64,000 nt of DNA from Nostoc sp. DedSLP01 (GTDB lineage: Bacteria; Cyanobacteriota; Cyanobacteriia; Cyanobacteriales; Nostocaceae). The notes under the pieces are model-generated. The model saw nothing but the letters and a program-made list of their open reading frames with translations, was not told the DNA's origin and ran no database searches. The stretch is taken from contig JAVRCJ020000006.1 of the NCBI GenBank assembly GCA_034530875.2, forward strand, positions 128,001-192,000, in the 5' to 3' direction. Below, piece after piece: positions 8,381 to 18,198 of this stretch. The first letter of the stretch is position 1; each line of letters starts with the position of its first letter. Both the position numbers and the translations under genes were made by a program.

Positions 8381-8848
8381 ATGATTACTACATCTAATCA
8401 ATCTCCAGCTTTAGAGCCGTGGCAGCAAAATCTGGCACCATACAATTTGGGCTACAGAATCAAATTACTGTCTCAACTCATTGGACGCAGGTTTACTGAC
8501 AGACTAGAACCCTTTGGCTTGACGCCATTTCACTGGTTGGTTTTGTGCTGTCTTTGGCAAGAAGATGGTTTGCCTACTTCTAGTATTGGGGACAAACTCA
8601 AACAAGTAGGCGGTACTTTAACTGGGGTATTAGACCGGATGGAAGAACGGGGTTTGGTGCGTCGAGAACGCGATACTCAAGACCGCCGCATCTGGCGAAT
8701 CTGGCTAACGGATGCAGGTAAGGAACTGCAAACGGTCTTACCTCCAATCGCCGCAAATGTCCGTGATGAAGCGATGGACGGTATTTCCCCTGCCGACCGA
8801 GAATTCTTTTCCCAACTCGTGAATCGAGCGATCGCTAACCTATCTTAA
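8381..8848 (+). CDS. MarR family transcriptional regulator
   Basis: LTGVLDRMEERGLVRRERDTQDRR...LTDAG wHTH signature. Confidence 0.95.
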   Translation: MITTSNQSPALEPWQQNLAPYNLGYRIKLLSQLIGRRFTDRLEPFGLTPFHWLVLCCLWQEDGLPTSSIGDKLKQVGGTLTGVLDRMEERGLVRRERDTQDRRIWRIWLTDAGKELQTVLPPIAANVRDEAMDGISPADREFFSQLVNRAIANLS

Positions 8849-8903
8849 GTATCGTCCCACAATCACCCAACTGGGGGAGGCAACATTAAGATTTATTTTG
8901 GCA

Positions 8904-8924
8904 AAATATTACGTATACGAAATA
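8904..8924. promoter_or_regulatory. Candidate MarR operator 2
   Basis: AAATATTACGTATACGAAATA, 17/18 identical to operator 1 over the first 18 nt. Confidence 0.6.
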
Positions 8925-9010
8925 AAAGCCGGAGAAAGTCTCGTAAATCAATAATACGTATTCTAAATAAACGTCAGTTAATTAAATCATTCTGCAAGGA
9001 GTTAAAAATT

Positions 9011-10504
9011 ATGGGTGCCAATACTTTAAACGGACGCAAAGATAACAGAACCCCAGTTTTAGAACCAGAATTGATTAAAGATTCAGAAACTTTAGAAGCT
9101 ATGACCGCACAGACAACGGAAGCGCCTGTTGTCACTCCCAATAAAGAGACAGCGCAAGCACCTGTCGTCACTCCCGAGGTAGAGAAAGAAGTTCCACCGA
9201 AGCGTAAAAAACCCATTGGTTTGATTTTGGCAGGATTAGGCGTAGGTGCGATCGCCGCAGGTGCTTTTGGCTATAACTATTGGCAATATTCCTCTACCCA
9301 CCAAGAAACAGATAACGCCACAGTTGTGGGAAACATTCACCAAGTTAGCAGCCGCATCCCCGGAACTGTAACCCAGGTGCTGGTGAACGACAATCAACTG
9401 GTGCAACCGGGACAATTGTTAGTCAAGTTAGATCCGCGGGACTACGAAAGTAAAGTCCAACAAGCGCAAGCAGCCTTAGAAAATGCTCGCGGTCAGGCGC
9501 AAGCTGCCCAAGCGAATATCGCTTTAGCTTCACAAACCACCAGCGGTAAGACAACTCAGGCGCAAGGAGATGTCAGCAACGCTGTAGCGGCAATTTCCAC
9601 CGCCCAAGCAGCGGTCCAAGAAGCGCAAGCTGGAATACCAGCGGCGCAAGCAGAAGTGAAGTTAGCCCAAGCTGGAATTCCTGCCGCCCAAGCGCAGGTA
9701 GCCCAAGCAAATGCCAACTTGGAAAAAGCCCAAGCAGATTACAACCGTTATAACGAATTGTATCAATCGGGTGCGATCGCTCGCCAGCAATTAGACACAG
9801 CTAAAGCAGCATATAATGTGGCTGTAGCGCAGAAAAATGCTGCCGTTCAGGGTGTAGAACAAGCGCAAGCGAGATTATCCTCAGCTAAAGTTGGCGTCGC
9901 CAAAGCCCAATCTCAATTAGCACAAGCCCAAGAAAGTGTAGTCAGCGCCCAAGCACAATTGGCTGCATCCAAGGGAGGATTGCAACAAGCGACAGCAGGC
10001 GGCCAAGATACAGCAGTCAAACGCAACCAATACGAAGCAGCCAAAGCAGCGATCGCGCAATCAGAAGCATCTCTGAAAGACGCTCAATTGCAACTATCTT
10101 ACGTTAATATTACGGCTCCTAGTGCCGGACGCGTGGGTAGAAAGAACGTCGAAGTTGGTAACCGAGTTGCAGCGGGAACGCCGTTAATGGCGATCGTCGA
10201 TAATCAAAATTGGGTAGTTGCAAACTTCAAAGAAACCCAATTAGAAAACATGCGGCCGGGAGAACCGGTAGAAATCAAACTGGATAGTTTCCCTCATCAC
10301 ACCTTTACTGGTCATGTTGATAGTATTTCGCCAGCTTCCGGCGCTCAGTTTGCCTTATTGCCACCAGATAACGCTACAGGTAACTTTACCAAAATTGTAC
10401 AGCGCATCCCAGTCAAAATAGTTTTTGACCAAAAGAGTATTCAAGGATACGAATCGCGGATTACACCAGGTATGTCTGCGGAAGTTGCAGTGGAAGTTAA
10501 GTAA
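9011..10504 (+). CDS. EmrA/HlyD family efflux periplasmic adaptor
   Basis: TM anchor, long Ala/Gln coiled coil, FALLPPDNATGNFTKIVQRIPV. Confidence 0.95.
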   Translation: MGANTLNGRKDNRTPVLEPELIKDSETLEAMTAQTTEAPVVTPNKETAQAPVVTPEVEKEVPPKRKKPIGLILAGLGVGAIAAGAFGYNYWQYSSTHQETDNATVVGNIHQVSSRIPGTVTQVLVNDNQLVQPGQLLVKLDPRDYESKVQQAQAALENARGQAQAAQANIALASQTTSGKTTQAQGDVSNAVAAISTAQAAVQEAQAGIPAAQAEVKLAQAGIPAAQAQVAQANANLEKAQADYNRYNELYQSGAIARQQLDTAKAAYNVAVAQKNAAVQGVEQAQARLSSAKVGVAKAQSQLAQAQESVVSAQAQLAASKGGLQQATAGGQDTAVKRNQYEAAKAAIAQSEASLKDAQLQLSYVNITAPSAGRVGRKNVEVGNRVAAGTPLMAIVDNQNWVVANFKETQLENMRPGEPVEIKLDSFPHHTFTGHVDSISPASGAQFALLPPDNATGNFTKIVQRIPVKIVFDQKSIQGYESRITPGMSAEVAVEVK

Positions 10505-10599
10505 TACCAAAGTGCTTTCTGCCTCTGACTTGAGAGAGGCGTCTCTAGATGAGGCGAGATGATATTTATGAAAGCAGATTGGTATAAAACAAACTTGAT

Positions 10600-11877
10600 A
10601 TGAAAAAATTGGTATTACCTGCATTAAGGTCAAGAAACTACCAGCTATTTTTTGCCGGACAAGGTGTTTCCTTGATTGGGACGTGGATGACGCAACTTGC
10701 AACGATTTGGCTAGTTTATGATTTGACAAACTCCCCATTAATGCTAGGAGTTGTAGGATTTTCGAGCCAAATTCCGAGCTTTTTTCTAGCCCCTTTTGGT
10801 GGAGTATTTGTAGACAGATTTTCTCGATATCGTACCTTAATTGGCACGCAAATCTTGGCGATGATTCAGTCGTTAGCATTAGCGGTGCTGGCGCTGACTG
10901 GGGTAATTCAGGTATGGCAAATCATCGCCTTGAGTTTGTTTCAAGGATTTATCAATGCCTTAGATGCACCAGCACGGCAAGCATTTGTGCCGGAATTGGT
11001 CGAACGCAGGGAAGATTTAGCCAACGCGATCGCCATTAACTCTACAATGGTCAACGGTGCGCGATTAATTGGCCCTGCGATCGGGGGTTTACTAATTGCT
11101 GGTATTGGAGTTGCCTATTGTTTTTTAATAGATGGTTTGAGCTACATTGCTGTTATCGCTGCTTTGTTGGCAATGAAAGTTAAACCTTGGCAAAATTCCA
11201 TCAATGATGGTAATCCCTTGCAAAAAGTTAAAGAGGGATTTGTATATGCCTTTAACTTTCCCCCAATTCGAGCAGTTTTATTACTATCAGCTTTAGTTAG
11301 CCTTATTGGATTACAAAATACTATTCTCGTACCAATTATTGCCGAAGAAATTCTCAAAGGTGGCGCAGAAACCTTGGGGTTTTTGATGGCGGCTTCTGGA
11401 GTTGGAGCCTTATCAGGTGGTATTTATCTCGCTACACGCAAAACAATTTTGGGAATTGGTAAATTCATTGCTTTAGCTCCAGCAATTTTAGGAATTGGCC
11501 TGGTTAGCTTTTCTTTATCTCGATTTTTACCACTTTCTTTATTCAGTATGTTATTTGTTGGCTTGGGAACAATTCTGCAAATTGCCGCTAGCAATACATT
11601 TTTACAAACAATTGTGGAAGAAGATAAACGCGGCAGATTGATGAGCTTATACACAATGTCATTTTTGGGAATGATTCCCATAGGTAATTTATTAGGAGGT
11701 GCATTAGCAAATCGGATTGGCGCTACCAATACTTTATTTTTTGATGGTATAGCTTGTATTATCTTCTCTATTATTTTTAGCAGGCAGTTACCTGCTTTAA
11801 GACAAATAATGCGTCCAATTTATCAGGAAAAAGGCATTTTAAAGAGTAATGAACCTGAAGATAAAAAATATCACTAA
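10600..11877 (+). CDS. MFS transporter (DUF894/EntS-like)
   Basis: ALRSRNYQLFFAGQGVSLIGTWM, DAPARQAFVPELV, 12 TM pattern. Confidence 0.92.
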   Translation: MKKLVLPALRSRNYQLFFAGQGVSLIGTWMTQLATIWLVYDLTNSPLMLGVVGFSSQIPSFFLAPFGGVFVDRFSRYRTLIGTQILAMIQSLALAVLALTGVIQVWQIIALSLFQGFINALDAPARQAFVPELVERREDLANAIAINSTMVNGARLIGPAIGGLLIAGIGVAYCFLIDGLSYIAVIAALLAMKVKPWQNSINDGNPLQKVKEGFVYAFNFPPIRAVLLLSALVSLIGLQNTILVPIIAEEILKGGAETLGFLMAASGVGALSGGIYLATRKTILGIGKFIALAPAILGIGLVSFSLSRFLPLSLFSMLFVGLGTILQIAASNTFLQTIVEEDKRGRLMSLYTMSFLGMIPIGNLLGGALANRIGATNTLFFDGIACIIFSIIFSRQLPALRQIMRPIYQEKGILKSNEPEDKKYH

Positions 11878-11934
11878 ATGTATAAAATATAATCATAAAT
11901 TTTTTGCTACTTCACCTTGAGTTGAAACAACACT

Positions 11935-13530
11935 ATGGCTAATACAGGTGTAATTCGTCAGCAAGGGCAAAATCCTGCTCTACCACCAGATCGGGTACCG
12001 CTAAGAACCTGGATTGGTGTATTAGCAAGTATGCTTGGTGCATTCATGGCGGTATTAGATATTCAAATCACGAATGCTTCCCTGCAAGATATTCAAGCCA
12101 GTTTAGGGGCAACTCTAGAAGAAGGTTCTTGGATTTCTACTGCGTATCTGGTTGCTGAAATTGTAGTAATTCCTTTAACAGGATGGTTATCAAGAGTCTT
12201 TTCTCTGCGACGCTATCTGTTAGTAAATACTGCATTATTTATTTTCTTTTCTATATGCTGTGCTTGGGCGTGGAATTTGAATTCAATGATTTTATTCCGC
12301 GCTTTACAAGGTTTTTGTGGAGGAGTACTCATTCCTACCGCGATGACAATTGTCTTAACGACCTTACCAGCATCAAAGCAATCAGTGGGGTTGGCTGCAT
12401 TTGGTTTTAGTGCAGTTTTTGCTCCATCAATCGGGCCGACATTAGGAGGTTGGCTAACTGAAAATTTTGGTTGGGAATATAACTTTTATATCAATTTAAT
12501 TCCAGGCGCATTAATGTTAGCTGGCGTTTGGTATGGAATTAAGCAAGAAGCAGCCCAAATTAGTTTACTCAAACAAGGTGACTGGTGGGGAATTATTGCA
12601 ATGGCGATCGGATTAGGTTCCCTGCAAGTTGTTTTAGAAGAAGGTAGCCGTAAAGATTGGTTTGGTTCGGCGTTAATTGTGCGTCTAACTGTAATTGCAG
12701 TAATTTTTCTAGCAATATTTTTCTTTATAGAATTAACTCGCAAACAACCATTTATTAATTTGCGGCTGTTGTTTAGGCGTAACTTTGGTTTAGCCAGTAT
12801 TGTGAATGTATCTTTGGGTGTAGGATTGTATGGTTCAATTTATATTTTACCGTTGTATCTTGCTCAAATTCAAAAATATAATGCGCTACAAATTGGTGAA
12901 GTATTGATGTGGGCTGGGATTCCGCAACTATTTATTATTCCTTTTATACCTAAATTGATGCAACGCTTTGATGTGCGTTTCATGGTCGCTGTTGGCGTAA
13001 CTTTATTTGCCGTAAGTGCATTTATGAATGCTGGAATGACTAATGAAACAGGATTAGATCAGTTACGCTGGTCGCAATTTGTACGCGCAATGGGACAACC
13101 TTTAATTATGGTACCTCTGAGTTCTATTGCCACTGGTGGATTAAGTCCAAAAGAAGCAGGTTCAGCGAGTGGTCTATTTAATATGATGCGGAATTTAGGA
13201 GGTTCTATCGGAATTGCTTCTTTGGCAACTTTATTAACAAATAGAGAGCAATTTCACTCCAATAGATTGGGCGATGGCATATCTTTGTATGACCCGACAA
13301 CTCAACAGCGAATTGACCAGATGACACAGTATTTTATCAGCCGAGGAGCAGATTTAAGTACGGCACAAAATCAGGCGATCGCATCTATATCAAATATTGT
13401 ACGTCGCGAAGCATTTGTCATGGCTTTTAACGATTGTTTCTACTTTATTGGCATTGCTTTATTACTAAGTGGAATTGCCATTTTATTCTTTAAAAAAGTC
13501 AAGGCAAGTGGTAGTGCTGTCGCTCATTAA
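11935..13530 (+). CDS. DHA2 family (EmrB/QacA) MFS efflux permease
   Basis: GAFMAVLDIQITN, WISTAYL, ASGLFNMMRNLGGSIG. Confidence 0.95.
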   Translation: MANTGVIRQQGQNPALPPDRVPLRTWIGVLASMLGAFMAVLDIQITNASLQDIQASLGATLEEGSWISTAYLVAEIVVIPLTGWLSRVFSLRRYLLVNTALFIFFSICCAWAWNLNSMILFRALQGFCGGVLIPTAMTIVLTTLPASKQSVGLAAFGFSAVFAPSIGPTLGGWLTENFGWEYNFYINLIPGALMLAGVWYGIKQEAAQISLLKQGDWWGIIAMAIGLGSLQVVLEEGSRKDWFGSALIVRLTVIAVIFLAIFFFIELTRKQPFINLRLLFRRNFGLASIVNVSLGVGLYGSIYILPLYLAQIQKYNALQIGEVLMWAGIPQLFIIPFIPKLMQRFDVRFMVAVGVTLFAVSAFMNAGMTNETGLDQLRWSQFVRAMGQPLIMVPLSSIATGGLSPKEAGSASGLFNMMRNLGGSIGIASLATLLTNREQFHSNRLGDGISLYDPTTQQRIDQMTQYFISRGADLSTAQNQAIASISNIVRREAFVMAFNDCFYFIGIALLLSGIAILFFKKVKASGSAVAH

Positions 13531-13535
13531 AAGGC

Positions 13536-13694
13536 CGAATGAGTGTGGAATGCTTCCGTCGTAATGAATAAGGGCATTGGGTACTTTATCCTTATGAAAA
13601 AGGAGACGAGGTACATTTAGCGAGTGTTGATTTTCGTTGTGCCATTGCAGCAATATATAAAGATGTAACAGTAGTAAAGGATAATAATTTTTAA
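13536..13694 (+). pseudogene. C-terminal fragment of a Uma2-family gene with internal stop
   Basis: Manual translation RMSVECFRRNE*GHWVLYPYEKGDEVHLASVDFRCAIAAIYKDV; TAA at 13569; 5' part missing. Confidence 0.7.
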
Positions 13695-14449
13695 TCCAAC
13701 ATTTCTGGGTCAATTCCTAAAGCATTTAGTTGTTCAACAGAAAGATTACGCAATTTCTCTACAATTCTTTCTCGCTTTTGTCGTTCAACTTCAGCGCGTT
13801 CTTCACCTGTTAGCAGTAAATTTCCTTGTGCATCCCACCACCGCAACCAAGGTAACTCTGCATTCTGATATAAACCCTGCCAAATTCCCAACTCTACCCC
13901 TAAAGGAGCAATTGGGTAATGTCCTCTTTCATTGGGTTTCATTAGTTGATAAGTAAAATCGGTGAGATGATACACCTCAACCTGAGCTTTTGCTACTTCA
14001 TAAATTCCATAATAAGGCACTCGAATTGCCTGCTCGTAAACCCAAAACTTGCCAACATTTCCACTTTCTCCTTGAGATGGCGGTGTTTTATCTCGTTCTT
14101 CTGAACCATCTCCAGAGACAAATTCCAACACAATTAAAGGTGCAACATACTCCTTCCACAGGACATAAGAACGCCGCATTTTACCATCGAGAGTAGGCGG
14201 TACATTGGGTACATAAAACCAATCTGGTGCCTCTGCGCCCTTTTCAGGAGGATCTGTTAATCGCCAGTAAATACCAGAATCTTGTCCAATACAATATTGT
14301 CCGTCAGGATGACGTTGTTCCAGAACAGGTTTAATTGAATCTGTAATTAAGATACTTTGGGGATGCTCCTGAAGATTTTTCACAAATTTACCATCTGAAT
14401 CTGGTAACTGAGTGTGGTCAGGTAAAGTTAATGCCGATAAGGAAGTCAT
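13691..14449 (-). CDS. Uma2 (DUF820) family putative endonuclease
   Basis: AEAPDWFYVP, PLIVLEFVS, GKFWVYEQ, WLRWWD. Confidence 0.93.
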   Translation of the reverse strand: MTSLSALTLPDHTQLPDSDGKFVKNLQEHPQSILITDSIKPVLEQRHPDGQYCIGQDSGIYWRLTDPPEKGAEAPDWFYVPNVPPTLDGKMRRSYVLWKEYVAPLIVLEFVSGDGSEERDKTPPSQGESGNVGKFWVYEQAIRVPYYGIYEVAKAQVEVYHLTDFTYQLMKPNERGHYPIAPLGVELGIWQGLYQNAELPWLRWWDAQGNLLLTGEERAEVERQKRERIVEKLRNLSVEQLNALGIDPEMLD

Positions 14450-14628
14450 AGGCTTTAACCGAGATTATATTTATATTTTGTTTATTATCTTAATAAATCT
14501 AACAAGCTTTGTTTCATAGAGTACTTGATATTTATGAATTTTGCACTCGTTAAATTTGCAATTAAGTATGCTTTTTGAATTCATGTAACTATATAGCAAT
14601 GGTTTAGATTTGTTTCACCAATTGAAAA

Positions 14629-15324
14629 TTAATAGATGGTAAGAAAAGATTTAAGCGTATTGAGTAATGGTTGTATAAATATATCCACTATTGGCTTTGT
14701 AAAACTAAGCAGAACCCCAATAGCAATCGCAAAAACAAAAGCCTGTTTAACAGAATAATTTTCTATTTTTTTCTCCATATCATCCAAACGTTTTACTAAA
14801 TAAGGAAGAGAAGAAACTAAATCAGGACTATTAATTAAGTCGGTTGGAATTGAATCATAACCTATCTTGTTTCGTGGATTTTCGTCTGCTTTATCCAAGT
14901 CTGTATACCATATAGCAAAAACCCTCTCACCTCTTCCTACATGAAAGTTAAGAGGCCCAGCATTATAAACAGCAAAAATTAGTTTTCCACTATAGCCAGG
15001 ATCGACATGAAAACCTGAAACATTGATCAGTCCACTTGATTTAAATTTAAATTTAATCGAAATAAATGCAAGTGCATTGTTAGGAACTTTGATTATTTCA
15101 GAAGTCATCAGAAATGCAAACTGTCCTGGAGGTATAGCAACAGTTTCTTTCTCTTTTAAAAGAATTTTTTTCCGATCTTTCAAAGGTGTATCAGGAAGGG
15201 CTGAAATATAAATTTCTTCCCCTAAACACAATTCATACGATGCAGACTGAATTTGATCGGCATTAAATGGTTCAATTAAATTAGGAAGATGAGATCTCAA
15301 AGTTTGTGATGACCAAAAACTCAT
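14629..15324 (-). CDS. dCTP deaminase/dUTPase-fold protein with C-terminal coiled coil and transmembrane helix
   Basis: IQSASYELCLG, IPPGQF, HVDPGYSGKL motifs; hydrophobic tail AFVFAIAIGVLLSF. Confidence 0.85.
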   Translation of the reverse strand: MSFWSSQTLRSHLPNLIEPFNADQIQSASYELCLGEEIYISALPDTPLKDRKKILLKEKETVAIPPGQFAFLMTSEIIKVPNNALAFISIKFKFKSSGLINVSGFHVDPGYSGKLIFAVYNAGPLNFHVGRGERVFAIWYTDLDKADENPRNKIGYDSIPTDLINSPDLVSSLPYLVKRLDDMEKKIENYSVKQAFVFAIAIGVLLSFTKPIVDIFIQPLLNTLKSFLTIY

Positions 15325-15854
15325 TTGTTTATCCGCAAGATATCGTTTAGTGAATGTTTTATCTCCACAGAGGCTAAACGTCGTCTAGACTCTTCTAAAA
15401 TAGAAATATTTCGTGAGTGTGCTTCACGAAGTAGAAGGTAAAAAAACTTTCGTATATTTCTATTCCAGGTAGCTCGAATCGGGTAATCTTCTTGGTGATC
15501 TGTTGCTTCACAAGCCTTAGCGAGTTCAGCAAGGAGCAGAATATATTCATCAATGAAATTACCGTTAATAGAATTAATTTTATCAATCAGCAGCTCTTTT
15601 GCTAAATAAATTCCTAATAAGTTACTTGCAGAAACAATCATTATAAATGAATCAATAAATGCCCTATTGTTTTCTGCTGCTGATATAGGTATAGATGAAA
15701 GAATTCCGAGATATTTAACGAGATGCAAGGCAATATGATTCATTCGCCTAGAAATATCAAGTACAACTATTTCATGATGGTAAATTTCATCATGCTTCAT
15801 TTGTAGACGTTGATAAGCATTTAATTCTTCAGTTGAAATTAGTTTGTTTAACAT
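15321..15854 (-). CDS. Hypothetical all-alpha protein, MazG/NTP-pyrophosphohydrolase-like
   Basis: Helical pattern HLVKYLG..DSFIMIVSASNLLGI and LAELAKACEATDH..; ATGA overlap with downstream gene. Confidence 0.6.
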   Translation of the reverse strand: MLNKLISTEELNAYQRLQMKHDEIYHHEIVVLDISRRMNHIALHLVKYLGILSSIPISAAENNRAFIDSFIMIVSASNLLGIYLAKELLIDKINSINGNFIDEYILLLAELAKACEATDHQEDYPIRATWNRNIRKFFYLLLREAHSRNISILEESRRRLASVEIKHSLNDILRINK

Positions 15855-16096
15855 GACGTTTACACTGATTTAATTCTTAAAATTTAGTCAGCCTATCTCC
15901 CTTAATTTAGGTATTTAGAGAGTTAGAATAACAATTTTGTATTTGACACCCTCATATTAGTGACTAAACAGACTGTAATCTTTACAACACCTTTAAATGA
16001 GTGATTAAACTGATAGCTTTTTTATAATACATCAATAAGTATAAAGAGGTATAAAGTTACCGCAAGTCATCTGTAATCTAATTAACAGTAGCTCAA

Positions 16097-16192
16097 TATA
16101 GCATTTCCTGTTATGGTGAAGTACAAGGTAGAAGCGAATAGCTTTGCGCCTCTACAAATTTCTGTACCTCAATTTGATTGGGAACCGTTATA
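16097..16192. mobile_element. Short MITE-like palindromic element
   Basis: Imperfect terminal inverted repeats TATAGCATTTCC..GTGAAGTACA / TGTACCTCA..GGAACCGTTATA with internal GTAGA..TCTAC hairpin. Confidence 0.55.
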
Positions 16193-16319
16193 ATAGCATT
16201 TTTTCTTTTATTATCCTTAAATATTACTTGAAAAATGTTATTAGTTTACAGTGATTATTCTACCATTCAACAAGCACAGAATTTGATTTTGTTATATTAT
16301 TTGAAATCTCGTATTTTGT

Positions 16320-17453
16320 CTATACTATAGAATTTAAGTTTAAAGATAATTCCTGAAAATTACTATTATTCAGTTGTTGCAGATTATGAATACTGAAATT
16401 TGGCAATTTATACTCTAAGCCTTGTTTTACTTTGCTGTTAATTCGCCATTTAGGTGGATAAAAATAATCAATGGGTTGAGGCGTTGAAATAAATTTAGAC
16501 TTTATCTTTTTACGATTACTTTTCAAATCAGGAAAAGCTGCTCGGCAGTATTTATCAGTTTCACAAAATAAATTTTGACAGTCTATAGCCTGTAGCGGAC
16601 GACCCCAAAGTGATTGAAAATTTAATCCCAAACGCTGAAATTCTTTCTCTTGATTTTCAGTCATCCAATGAATAACATCTGTATATGTTTTACCTTCTGT
16701 ATCAATAAAACATTTGTTAATACCACGTTCGGCACCTGGGCCTGCTATAGTAAAACTATTCTCGTCAAAGTTGATAATTTCACTATAGTTAATATCTGTG
16801 GCTAATTGGTAAGCCATAAACTTACCCAATAAGGGATATTCTTGAATTATTTGAAAAACAGCTTCAAAACTTTTGGCTTTGACTATGTTATTTACTACCC
16901 TATCTTGGACAACCATTTTATCAATTAATGCTAAATGATTTTGGTGTTTTTTATCATAACCGAACTCTTTGCTGGCACAAGACATATAGGCACTAGTATA
17001 AATAACATACCCAAGATTCATCGCTTCTTGCAAGATGTTTGAATATACATTAAAATCAAAGTTAGATAATGTAATATAGTCGCCTATTTGTTTCTCTAAA
17101 TATTCCCAGGTTTCTATCTTATTAAAGATTTTAAATAGTAAAATTCTGAAGATTACTTCTTCTTCATTTTTGCTTCTATTATCATCATAAATTACGTTTT
17201 TAATCAGATATTGTGAAACGCGATCGCTTGCTCGATATGCGTTACAAAACTTATAAGTATTAATAATGGGATCGCTTGTCCAAGGCGGTGGTAGATTGTT
17301 AATTTTGTTGAAAAATACTTCTTGGCGCATAGCAGCAAATCGCCAATAGGTATCAAAAATTTCTTGTCTTACTCGCATATACTGTTCTCTTGGCTTGCGC
17401 TCATCAGTTTTGCCTCTAGAAATCTGATTATACGACAACTGTCGTATAATCAT
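16320..17453 (-). CDS. aGPT-Pplase1 / amino acid:DNA transferase-like protein (HhH glycosylase fold, DNA base hypermodification family)
   Basis: YWRFAAMRQ..PWTSDPII..YKFCNAYRASDRVSQ, LGKFMAYQLATD, AGPGAERGI, DCQNLFCETDKY. Confidence 0.85.
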   Translation of the reverse strand: MIIRQLSYNQISRGKTDERKPREQYMRVRQEIFDTYWRFAAMRQEVFFNKINNLPPPWTSDPIINTYKFCNAYRASDRVSQYLIKNVIYDDNRSKNEEEVIFRILLFKIFNKIETWEYLEKQIGDYITLSNFDFNVYSNILQEAMNLGYVIYTSAYMSCASKEFGYDKKHQNHLALIDKMVVQDRVVNNIVKAKSFEAVFQIIQEYPLLGKFMAYQLATDINYSEIINFDENSFTIAGPGAERGINKCFIDTEGKTYTDVIHWMTENQEKEFQRLGLNFQSLWGRPLQAIDCQNLFCETDKYCRAAFPDLKSNRKKIKSKFISTPQPIDYFYPPKWRINSKVKQGLEYKLPNFSIHNLQQLNNSNFQELSLNLNSIV

Positions 17454-17529
17454 CTACAGCGATCGCATTTTTGACAAACTACCTTCAAAGCAAATGTTTT
17501 TAACTTTTATCTCTTGAAAAATATAACTT

Positions 17530-18198
17530 TTATGAAATACTAGGATCGTCTGCTTTTTTTATTTCTTCCAAGATTTTTTGAACTTGATTAACTTTTTCAT
17601 TTCTATTCTGTTCTTTAAAAATATTTAAAGCTTTCTCTAGAGAAGAGATTGCCTCATCTTGTTTATTTGTTTGCCACATTGCCAGAGCAAAGTTAGTTAG
17701 TGCTTCAGCATAATTCGGATTAATTTCTAAAGCTTTCTGGTATTGAGAAATAGCGTCTTGCCAGCGATTGTCGCTAGCATAGACCATACCAATAGCATTG
17801 TAGGCTAAAGCATATTTTGGCTGGAGGCGGATCGCTTCTTTGTAGGCGCTAATTGCTTCTTCTGATTTCTTTTGCCGAAAAAGTACGTTTCCTAGTTGAA
17901 AGTGTCCAAAGGCATCTTTAGGAAATTGTTTAATGAATTTGCGTAAATTTTCCTCTGCACCCTTCAAGTCTCCTTGATTGTACAAAGCATTGGCTTGTTG
18001 GAGAATTTGCGATCGCTCTGATGGCCCTTGGTCTGAAAATTGCGCTAGTTTCTGTATTTGTCTTGTGGGATACTGTTGAGGCGAATGCAAAGAAACTGCT
18101 AATACTGATGGTGATAGACCAATTGCAGTGATGATACTCAGTGTTATGCAGCTCAAAGGTTGAACAAATGCTGATTTCAGTTTGTTGTTCGCTTTCAT
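17530..18198 (-). CDS. Tetratricopeptide repeat protein with signal peptide
   Basis: Repeated AISAYKEAIRLQPKYALAY / AISQYQKALEINPNYAEA. Confidence 0.92.
   Translation of the reverse strand: MKANNKLKSAFVQPLSCITLSIITAIGLSPSVLAVSLHSPQQYPTRQIQKLAQFSDQGPSERSQILQQANALYNQGDLKGAEENLRKFIKQFPKDAFGHFQLGNVLFRQKKSEEAISAYKEAIRLQPKYALAYNAIGMVYASDNRWQDAISQYQKALEINPNYAEALTNFALAMWQTNKQDEAISSLEKALNIFKEQNRNEKVNQVQKILEEIKKADDPSIS

Follow-up and report, generated by a model that had tools for sequence, protein, structure and literature searches.

What do three AT-rich genes, here called g1, g2 and g3, do in the genome of the cyanobacterium Nostoc sp. DedSLP01? They lie together on the minus strand at positions 14629 to 17453 of the window, by which we mean the whole 64,000-nucleotide stretch that was analysed (GenBank assembly GCA_034530875.2, contig JAVRCJ020000006.1, positions 128,001 to 192,000 of the forward strand). 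We consider it probable that the trio has a defence role of some kind. The mechanism that we favour, with a probability of roughly 0.45, is an abortive, mobile anti-phage module in which a modified deoxyuridine nucleotide would gate g3 as an effector in the membrane, its functional steps being ones that we infer throughout. The parts of the module are as follows.

16320–17453, minus strand: g1 (377 aa), a clade-1 aGPT-Pplase (HMUDK_hel) with a fold like that of helix-hairpin-helix (HhH) glycosylases.
15321–15854, minus strand: g2 (177 aa), an uncharacterised member of the all-alpha NTP-pyrophosphatase (NTP-PPase) superfamily with a dimeric-dUTPase fold and a His-rich conserved site.
14629–15324, minus strand: g3 (231 aa), a Dcd/trimeric-dUTPase fold (about residues 1–155) followed by a linker and one hydrophobic helix.
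14686–14742, minus strand: the predicted transmembrane helix of g3 (residues 195–213; Kyte-Doolittle 19-mer mean 2.11).

In unrelated phyla the trio recurs as a compact operon. When a genome collection was scanned with the g2 alignment, 45 loci were confirmed out of 89 pattern matches, a subset of the family since the pattern held one motif. g3 stands directly behind g2 in 43 of these 45 loci and g1 is nearby in 36, which supports the first-pass annotation in treating the three genes as a set. Among the 36 loci with g1 the order g2-g3-g1 on one strand prevails (30 loci, against two with g1-g2-g3 and four with other layouts), and ten of the 30 contain neither a thymidylate-synthase-like (TS-like) nor a regulator gene and so have the same content as the window, two of them with less than 2 kb upstream. 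The pairwise distances of g2, g3 and g1 correlate over 34 loci (0.72, 0.77 and 0.49), as is expected from kinship alone. A metagenome scan with g3 (589 pattern matches) yielded at least two loci among the matches listed. Integrases, relaxases and type IV secretion genes are frequent beside g2-g3 loci and nine plasmids carry g3; the six plasmids examined hold g2 in four cases, a MazG+MazG_C protein in three (one plasmid having both) and an annotated uracil-DNA glycosylase (UDG) in three.

Larger versions of the module add genes for a helix-turn-helix (HTH) protein and an M78 peptidase in 21 of 49 loci; a TS-like gene likewise occurs in 21, and a papain-like peptidase is often encoded as well. 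The HTH protein and the M78 peptidase match the PADLOC models for capH (E 4e-12) and capP (E 1e-14), and the catalytic Cys is conserved in 32 of 32 sequences of the TS-like partner. Three parts are constant across versions: a clade-1 aGPT-Pplase, a protein of the all-alpha NTP-PPase fold, which is either g2 or MazG, and a putative output, for which g3, MazG_C or, in the E. coli system DS-4, TIR is the candidate. The optional parts are uracil-handling enzymes. One regulator block (L026:3728-6999 and 20 similar loci) consists of a small open reading frame, an HTH gene, a gene whose product joins an M78 peptidase with a chagasin-like inhibitor domain, and a papain-family peptidase, sometimes with an acyl carrier protein synthase gene after the module; it is a predicted protease–inhibitor pair within a CapH/CapP-like switch. 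At another locus (L024:554-8193) genes for a prokaryotic Argonaute and a Cas4-like nuclease lie between a TS-g1-MazG_C module, whose g1 appears split, and g2-g3; the window's genome holds a 53% homologue of this nuclease at C3:247229-248029 and gave no Argonaute match.

Profile searches, the check that the first-pass annotation had put forward, placed g1 in PF18723 and g3 in PF22769 and gave no Pfam or NCBIfam match for g2, which matches only an unnamed PHROG. For g3 the match to PF22769 (DCD; E 8e-18) is accompanied by scores below the equivalog cut-off of TIGR02274 (dCTP deaminase; 74.6 against 92.8 bits) and below that of TIGR00576 (trimeric dUTPase; 18.6 against 102.55 bits). Ser111, Arg115 and Glu138 of E. 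coli Dcd, its catalytic residues, align with Phe92, Ser96 and Ala118 of g3; the Dcd structures compared, 1xs1 and 1xs4, themselves differ by Glu to Ala in the Glu138 column. Among 73 g3 homologues this column holds Ser (36), Ala (35) or Thr (2), and the deaminase Glu is thus lost from all of them. The position of the motif-2 Ser is Ala or Phe in 68 of the 73, while the motif-3 Asp108 and Lys/Arg91 are each kept in 72 and His106, Asn101, Ser103 and Trp139 are invariant; a motif-3 Asp and a motif-2 Arg-Ser are characteristic of trimeric dUTPases. A C-terminal hydrophobic segment of at least 1.6 is present in 72 of the 73 homologues, and the exception is cut by a stop codon. The membrane-tethered Dcd-fold protein proposed at the outset is supported by this predicted anatomy: g3 has the appearance of a binder anchored in the membrane and not that of a deaminase.

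g1 matches PF18723 (HMUDK_hel) over positions 2–280 of 281 (E 1e-109; 366.6 bits against a cut-off of 25). Its start may alternatively be Met26 (17378), and an orthologue in genome G579 has 352 aa; in the structural model (predicted local distance difference test score, pLDDT, 87.2) residues 1–17 fall below 50. Cys297, Glu298 and Gln293 are invariant in 45 of 45 aligned sequences. By sequence g1 matched nothing in the PDB; by fold it matches a queuine salvage enzyme (Z 10.3) and gp46 of phage PaMx11 (Z 9.9), which are tied, and HhH glycosylases (Z 7–8.4). g1 is homologous to PaMx11 gp50 (probability 99.7%), whereas hhalign gives a probability of 0.7% for gp46, a glycinyltransferase; in that weak alignment Cys297 falls on gp46 Cys247 and Gln293 on gp46 Glu243. 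PF18724 (AADT, aGPT-Pplase clade 2) had no match in the whole genome, with the gp46 control recovered at E 3e-29. By these profile results g1 is a clade-1 and not a clade-2 aGPT-Pplase. Thus the family name first given to g1 holds, but the hypermodifying transferase activity that came with it does not carry over: the available passages of Lee 2021 assign transferase activity to clade 2 and describe the fifth M6 protein, the paralogue gp55, as dispensable, and the available passages of the 2026 dapT paper do not mention Pplase1. Clade-1 aGPT-Pplases are present in 509 phage records and many bacteria. A homologue of g1 (28%) is found in eight Nodularia phage records; phages of Nostocales have it as a solo clade-1 aGPT-Pplase, as in NC_048756 (L167:7998-8957). 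Nodularia phages were considered as natural targets, but the one genome tested, NC_048756, matches neither PF00303 nor PF18724 and so gives no sign of thymidine modification.

g2 is assigned by the fold of its model (pLDDT 88.7) to the all-alpha NTP-PPase superfamily of dimeric dUTPases and MazG. Its top three matches among 48,161 chains are dimeric dUTPases (5myd, Z 12.2 with a root-mean-square deviation of 3.1 over 144 residues; 1w2y, Z 10.4; 2yay, Z 9.0) and the next row has Z 7.5, values to be read with the caution that, below a Z of about 13, a match may reflect helical bundles in general. Its neighbours in the Atlas and BFVD (viral-structure) collections, dUTPase_2, MazG-like and NTP-PPase proteins, agree with this fold; a Foldseek search against the PDB returned nothing at E ≤ 0.001, and two MazG-type structures gave weak profile matches (E 0.03 and 0.08). 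The label MazG-like, which g2 had first received, therefore holds at the level of the superfamily and fails below it: the closest folds are dimeric dUTPases, and none of 100 family members matches PF03819 MazG or PF08761 dUTPase_2 at E ≤ 0.05, one matching PF12643 at E 0.01. The family is large, with 544 clusters found by the g2 profile at E ≤ 0.001, and its conserved site over 100 rows comprises Q18, H21, D22, H26, H40, H44, K47, Y48, D68, N78, E116, D119, H120, E122 and R159. Mapped by eye, His40, His44 and Lys47 of helix 2 occupy what we take to be acidic metal-ligand positions of MazG-type enzymes.

Viruses also have g2 homologues as solo genes: four IMG/VR contigs carry one, as do T4-like phages of Acinetobacter and jumbo phages of Pseudomonas, in two phages between dexA and a topoisomerase gene; the window's g2 as query matched no cultured phage directly, whereas a viral homologue did. 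Six viral homologues keep 17–18 of 18 site residues. The site is therefore a trait of the family and may well be catalytic, and the solo phage genes are candidate counter-defences or nucleotide-pool enzymes. Solo g2 genes with the full His-rich site in lytic phages were seen at L168:3980-4564, L170:3067-3660, L169:2947-3699 and L066-L069.

In the mechanism that we favour, the module would kill or arrest the infected cell once a non-canonical deoxyuridine-type nucleotide appears. First, g1 would flip out or bind uracil or a 5-substituted uracil, be it in the DNA of the phage, in host DNA that infection has broken down or as a free nucleotide, and by means of its Cys297 would generate a modified pyrimidine deoxynucleotide or set one free. 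g2 would then bind or hydrolyse that nucleotide and set a threshold, its simplest role being to clear basal signal; in sister versions MazG+MazG_C would fill this slot. Finally, trimers of g3 would bind the nucleotide in their conserved non-deaminase pocket and disturb the membrane via their C-terminal helices. In the larger versions the TS-like enzyme would make a C5-modified dUMP itself. Solo g2 genes in lytic phages that retain nearly the whole site fit what this mechanism would lead one to expect of a counter-defence, and the available part of the Atd1 preprint offers a MazG-like protein as a phage counter-defence precedent. A complex prediction of g3 (residues 1–185, three copies) with g2 (two copies) scored 0.00 and was used neither way.

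The same linkage and the same anatomy of g3 would also fit the logic of a guard, in which an ever-present nucleotide silences g3 and a phage dUTPase, dCTPase or MazG-like enzyme trips the effector by removing it. All-alpha NTP-PPases are common in phages and include proteins structurally close to g2, and Panoptes and Hailong are precedents for guard-type defence. We nevertheless regard such a guard as unlikely: no synthase is evident among the three genes, and g3 persists without g2 at 21 of 65 loci in the Nostocaceae, with a median ratio of nonsynonymous to synonymous substitution rates (dN/dS) of 0.38, though MazG+MazG_C is then present.

The conserved sites of g2 and g3 also bear on a direct attack that involves no signalling, in which g1 would damage or cross-link modified phage DNA and g2 and g3 would be active hydrolases that drain pyrimidine dNTPs, modified or canonical. 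Such an attack could draw on the glycosylase-like fold and the Cys of g1, on annotated uracil-DNA glycosylases at sister loci, on a g2 site that is invariant even in phages and on the Asp108 that g3 retains, and MazG-like proteins have been proposed as NTP-depleting effectors, for which the PUA-Cal-HAD preprint, in the part available, is a precedent. It leaves unexplained the near-universal membrane helix of g3 and the replacement of its motif-2 Ser, and we hold it to be improbable.

A further question is whether the genes serve to modify the cell's own DNA, as a bacterial copy of the phage line from dCTP through dUTP, dUMP and modified dUMP to DNA that would mark the DNA of the cell or of the element. 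The larger operons do resemble phage hypermodification clusters in holding TS-like, dUTPase-fold, Dcd-fold and aGPT genes, the Cys of the TS-like protein is kept, and Lee 2018, in the passages available, suggests that bacterial homologues make unexplored modifications. Against this, the genome, which is 99.8% complete, has no match to PF00303 (a control matched in 10 of 14 genomes), none to PF18724 with its working PaMx11 control, and no tblastn match to three TS-like queries; searches of it with PF18722, PF07799 and PF18748 (kinase) were also blank, these having no working control. g3 lacks the deaminase Glu and, in the weak alignment, Glu243 of gp46 corresponds to a Gln of g1. The absence of any detected gene of the thymidylate synthase family or of clade 2 makes self-modification of the phage style unlikely in this host, in line with the original suggestion that the cell does not modify its own DNA.

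We now turn to the setting of the trio in the window. The coordinates and the GC contents confirm the description first given, of three co-oriented AT-rich genes between an Uma2 and a TPR gene: the g2 stop and the g3 start share ATGA at 15321–15324, 465 bp separate g1 from g2, and the GC content is 0.319 in g1 and 0.328 in both g2 and g3, compared with 0.409 in the genome and 0.36–0.49 in seven flanking genes. The two flanking genes lie outside the module and are found at empty sites too.

17530–18198, minus strand: TPR gene (Pfam TPR).
13691–14449, minus strand: Uma2 gene (PF05685).

In three relatives (G003, G004 and G005) the TPR gene adjoins Uma2 without g1-g2-g3, and a fourth (G011) has a different cargo at this site. 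The trio is thus a genuine insertion. Purifying selection acts on each of the three genes, with dN/dS against four close relatives of 0.09–0.15 for g1 (three pairs), 0.17–0.22 for g2 (four pairs) and 0.20–0.40 for g3 (four pairs). The acs-TPR-Uma2 interval (14450–17529 in the window) is a hot spot in the genus whose variable cargo includes none, g1 alone, MazG_C modules, a TPR protein and small nuclease-like genes. Elsewhere, at 8381–13530, the window holds genes for a MarR-like regulator, a membrane-fusion protein and two major facilitator superfamily transporters, which we take from their translations to be an ordinary efflux operon.

Within the Nostocaceae the locus is a mosaic, in which g1 usually stands with DUF1643, which we presume to be UDG-like, and MazG+MazG_C, and g2-g3 form a second module. 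Of 389 Nostocaceae genomes, 79 have g1, 28 have g3 and 5 have g2; g3 is found in 3 of 401 genomes across the phylum. The 65 Nostocaceae loci comprise g1+DUF1643+MazG_C (25), the same with g3 (21), g1+TS-like+MazG_C (9), g1 alone (5), g1+g2+g3 (3), DUF1643+g2+g3 (1) and one cut by a contig end. The last 13–26 codons of g2 survive behind MazG_C or fused to it in 15 of 22 loci with MazG_C and g3, compared with 2 of 34 MazG_C loci without g3. An ancestor therefore held both modules, and deletion of g2 left g3 with MazG+MazG_C. In a quick g3 tree without bootstrap, which was not used for the direction of transfer, rows of the g2 and MazG_C types are intermixed among cyanobacteria. MazG+MazG_C proteins whose C-terminus is made up of the final ~25 residues of g2 were seen at L012:8301-9257, L013:4022-5026, L112, L140 and L151, and at L140 and L151 g3 is lost besides g2. 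DUF1643 itself had no PDB match by sequence. One genome (G026; L016:5391-13340) has, besides an HMUDK_hel-DUF1643 fusion of 630 aa, a further HMUDK_hel, a P-loop protein and two genes with a thymidylate synthase domain, which in one of them is fused to a pterin-binding domain.

The window locus has kept g2-g3. DUF1643 and MazG_C, both carried by sister loci, were not found there by tblastn with working queries, and no remnant of either was detected in the gap between g1 and g2. This gap contains two further features.

16095–16200, no strand assigned: close to where the two modules meet, a dispersed repeat (about 100 bp) that has a hairpin at its core.
15855–16046, minus strand: the non-coding leader of g2-g3.

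The repeat has nine more blastn matches in the genome (76–88% identity in the seven displayed). The leader is kept with g2-g3 at four loci (L106, L107, L109 and L120), one of which (L109) is without g1, and is probably the promoter region of g2-g3; a promoter scan was at chance level (16 found, 16.8 expected). These features, a repeat and a separate leader between g1 and g2, raise the alternative that g1 was orphaned when DUF1643 and MazG+MazG_C were lost and that g2-g3 is a separate unit, so that the three have no joint function here. Likewise, g1 is 82–90% identical to the g1 of MazG_C-type Nostocaceae loci and 41–49% to that of proteobacterial three-gene loci, and g2-g3 occurs without g1 in 7 of the 45 loci of the genome scan. 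Such an accident is nonetheless very unlikely, given the strong selection on g1, the persistence of the window-type arrangement in four genomes of two genera (g1 dS up to 1.1) and the compact operon that the trio forms in unrelated phyla. The 465-bp gap, first offered as a possible break between independent insertions, is thus a module junction in the Nostocaceae, although the trio recurs as an operon in other phyla.

Several findings weigh against the membrane-effector mechanism or against defence altogether. Asp108 is retained in g3, and the Glu is missing as well from the two PDB entries closest to g3, archaeal proteins titled dCTP deaminase; g3 could therefore be an active hydrolase. One membrane helix per g3 chain is thin for a pore. 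The His-rich site of g2 is the same in solo phage genes and hence is no mark of a dead defence sensor. g1 occurs without g3 in 41 of the 65 Nostocaceae loci, far more commonly than together with it, and no activity is reported for clade-1 aGPT-Pplases in the available parts of the literature examined. The locus is flanked by housekeeping genes rather than by a defence island. Neighbouring genes were scanned with Pfam for 118 of about 350 families and with PADLOC for 85 proteins; a neighbour with a PADLOC match at E<1e-15 occurs in 10 of the 45 loci, which speaks for defence, but this count has no background control, comes from proteins picked by hand and includes many loci that are near-copies on related mobile elements. 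PADLOC v2.0.0 (2023 library) matched none of g1-g3 at E ≤ 0.1, nor, at E ≤ 1e-5, any of 13 proteins that are homologues or partners. For DS-4, the one lambda row in the available part of PMC13092281 is weak, with a -log efficiency of plating of 0.93 and small plaques.

A more specific form of the mechanism, which we put forward as doubtful, is that the modified deoxyuridine nucleotide is a messenger: g1 would turn thymidine-modified phage DNA into an alarm, g3 as a dead trimeric Dcd fold would read it and open the membrane, g2 would erase the signal, and phages would have taken the eraser as a counter-defence. If true, this would define a new class of immunity by nucleotide signals, would be the first function for clade-1 aGPT-Pplases, would make the hypermodification of phage DNA a liability, would extend signalling by base-modified nucleotides from purines (dITP, m6-dAMP) to pyrimidines and would enlarge the range of effector types by a membrane receptor of the Dcd fold. 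The trio offers a three-gene, 2.8-kb test case for a clade-1 aGPT-Pplase, and g2 represents an NTP-PPase-fold family whose solo phage members are candidate counter-defences. Should the defence idea fail, the substrates of g1 and g2 would still be new nucleotide chemistry. Altogether, the interpretation of the first-pass annotation is partly supported, its signalling mechanism being the conjectural part.

How does the trio relate to known systems? A literature search found no publication on a module of the g2-g3 type. Bacterial aGPT-Pplase operons were reportedly listed by Iyer in 2013, so the gene neighbourhood may already be in print. The claim of an undescribed system agrees with the blank PADLOC search, but the trio is not wholly undescribed because DefensePredictor (PMC13092281), in its available passages, names the same domains (aGPT-Pplase, MazG, MazG-C, dUTPase and UDG) in predicted, unvalidated defence systems and reports DS-4, with HMUDK_hel, as validated. 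Those domains are what its text gives for the systems of its Fig. 6F; the sister versions hold HMUDK_hel, DUF1643, MazG+MazG_C and a Dcd-fold protein, and the window locus lacks MazG_C and DUF1643. The passages mention no His-rich g2 family, membrane helix of g3, lost deaminase residues or mechanism. DS-4 of E. coli likewise has PF18723 in a bacterial operon listed as defensive, but differs in its thymidylate synthase, dNMP kinase, TIR and NMAD genes, none of which is at the window locus, and, by the names listed in the available passages, in having no gene of the g2 or g3 type.

Phage thymidine hypermodification (5-HMUDK kinase plus clade-2 AADT, in M6, ViI and PaMx11) shares with g1 the fold, as in gp46, and probably a Cys nucleophile, whereas g1 is of clade 1 and searches of the host genome returned neither a hydroxymethylase nor a clade-2 gene. 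g3 has the fold of housekeeping Dcd without its residues and with a membrane helix added, and g2 that of dimeric dUTPase and MazG with, by eye, His and Lys where we presume acidic metal ligands in helix 2. No Pfam or PADLOC match to HAM1, Sir2 or adenosine deaminase was found in g1-g3. Kongming (KomA deaminase, KomB HAM1, KomC Sir2) is, as far as the available passages describe it, likewise a set of three genes that joins a base-modifying enzyme, a repurposed nucleotide-enzyme fold and an effector; KomB is a dead pyrophosphatase (Asp to His), and the upstream enzymes are swappable, UDG being one of them. It differs in its purine signal dITP, its HAM1 fold and its NADase effector, where the trio has pyrimidine-type dUTPase folds and a candidate membrane-helix effector. 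By this analogy the trio would follow a Kongming-like logic yet is no member of Kongming; it belongs to a predicted defence family, whose g2-g3 form appears to be undescribed.

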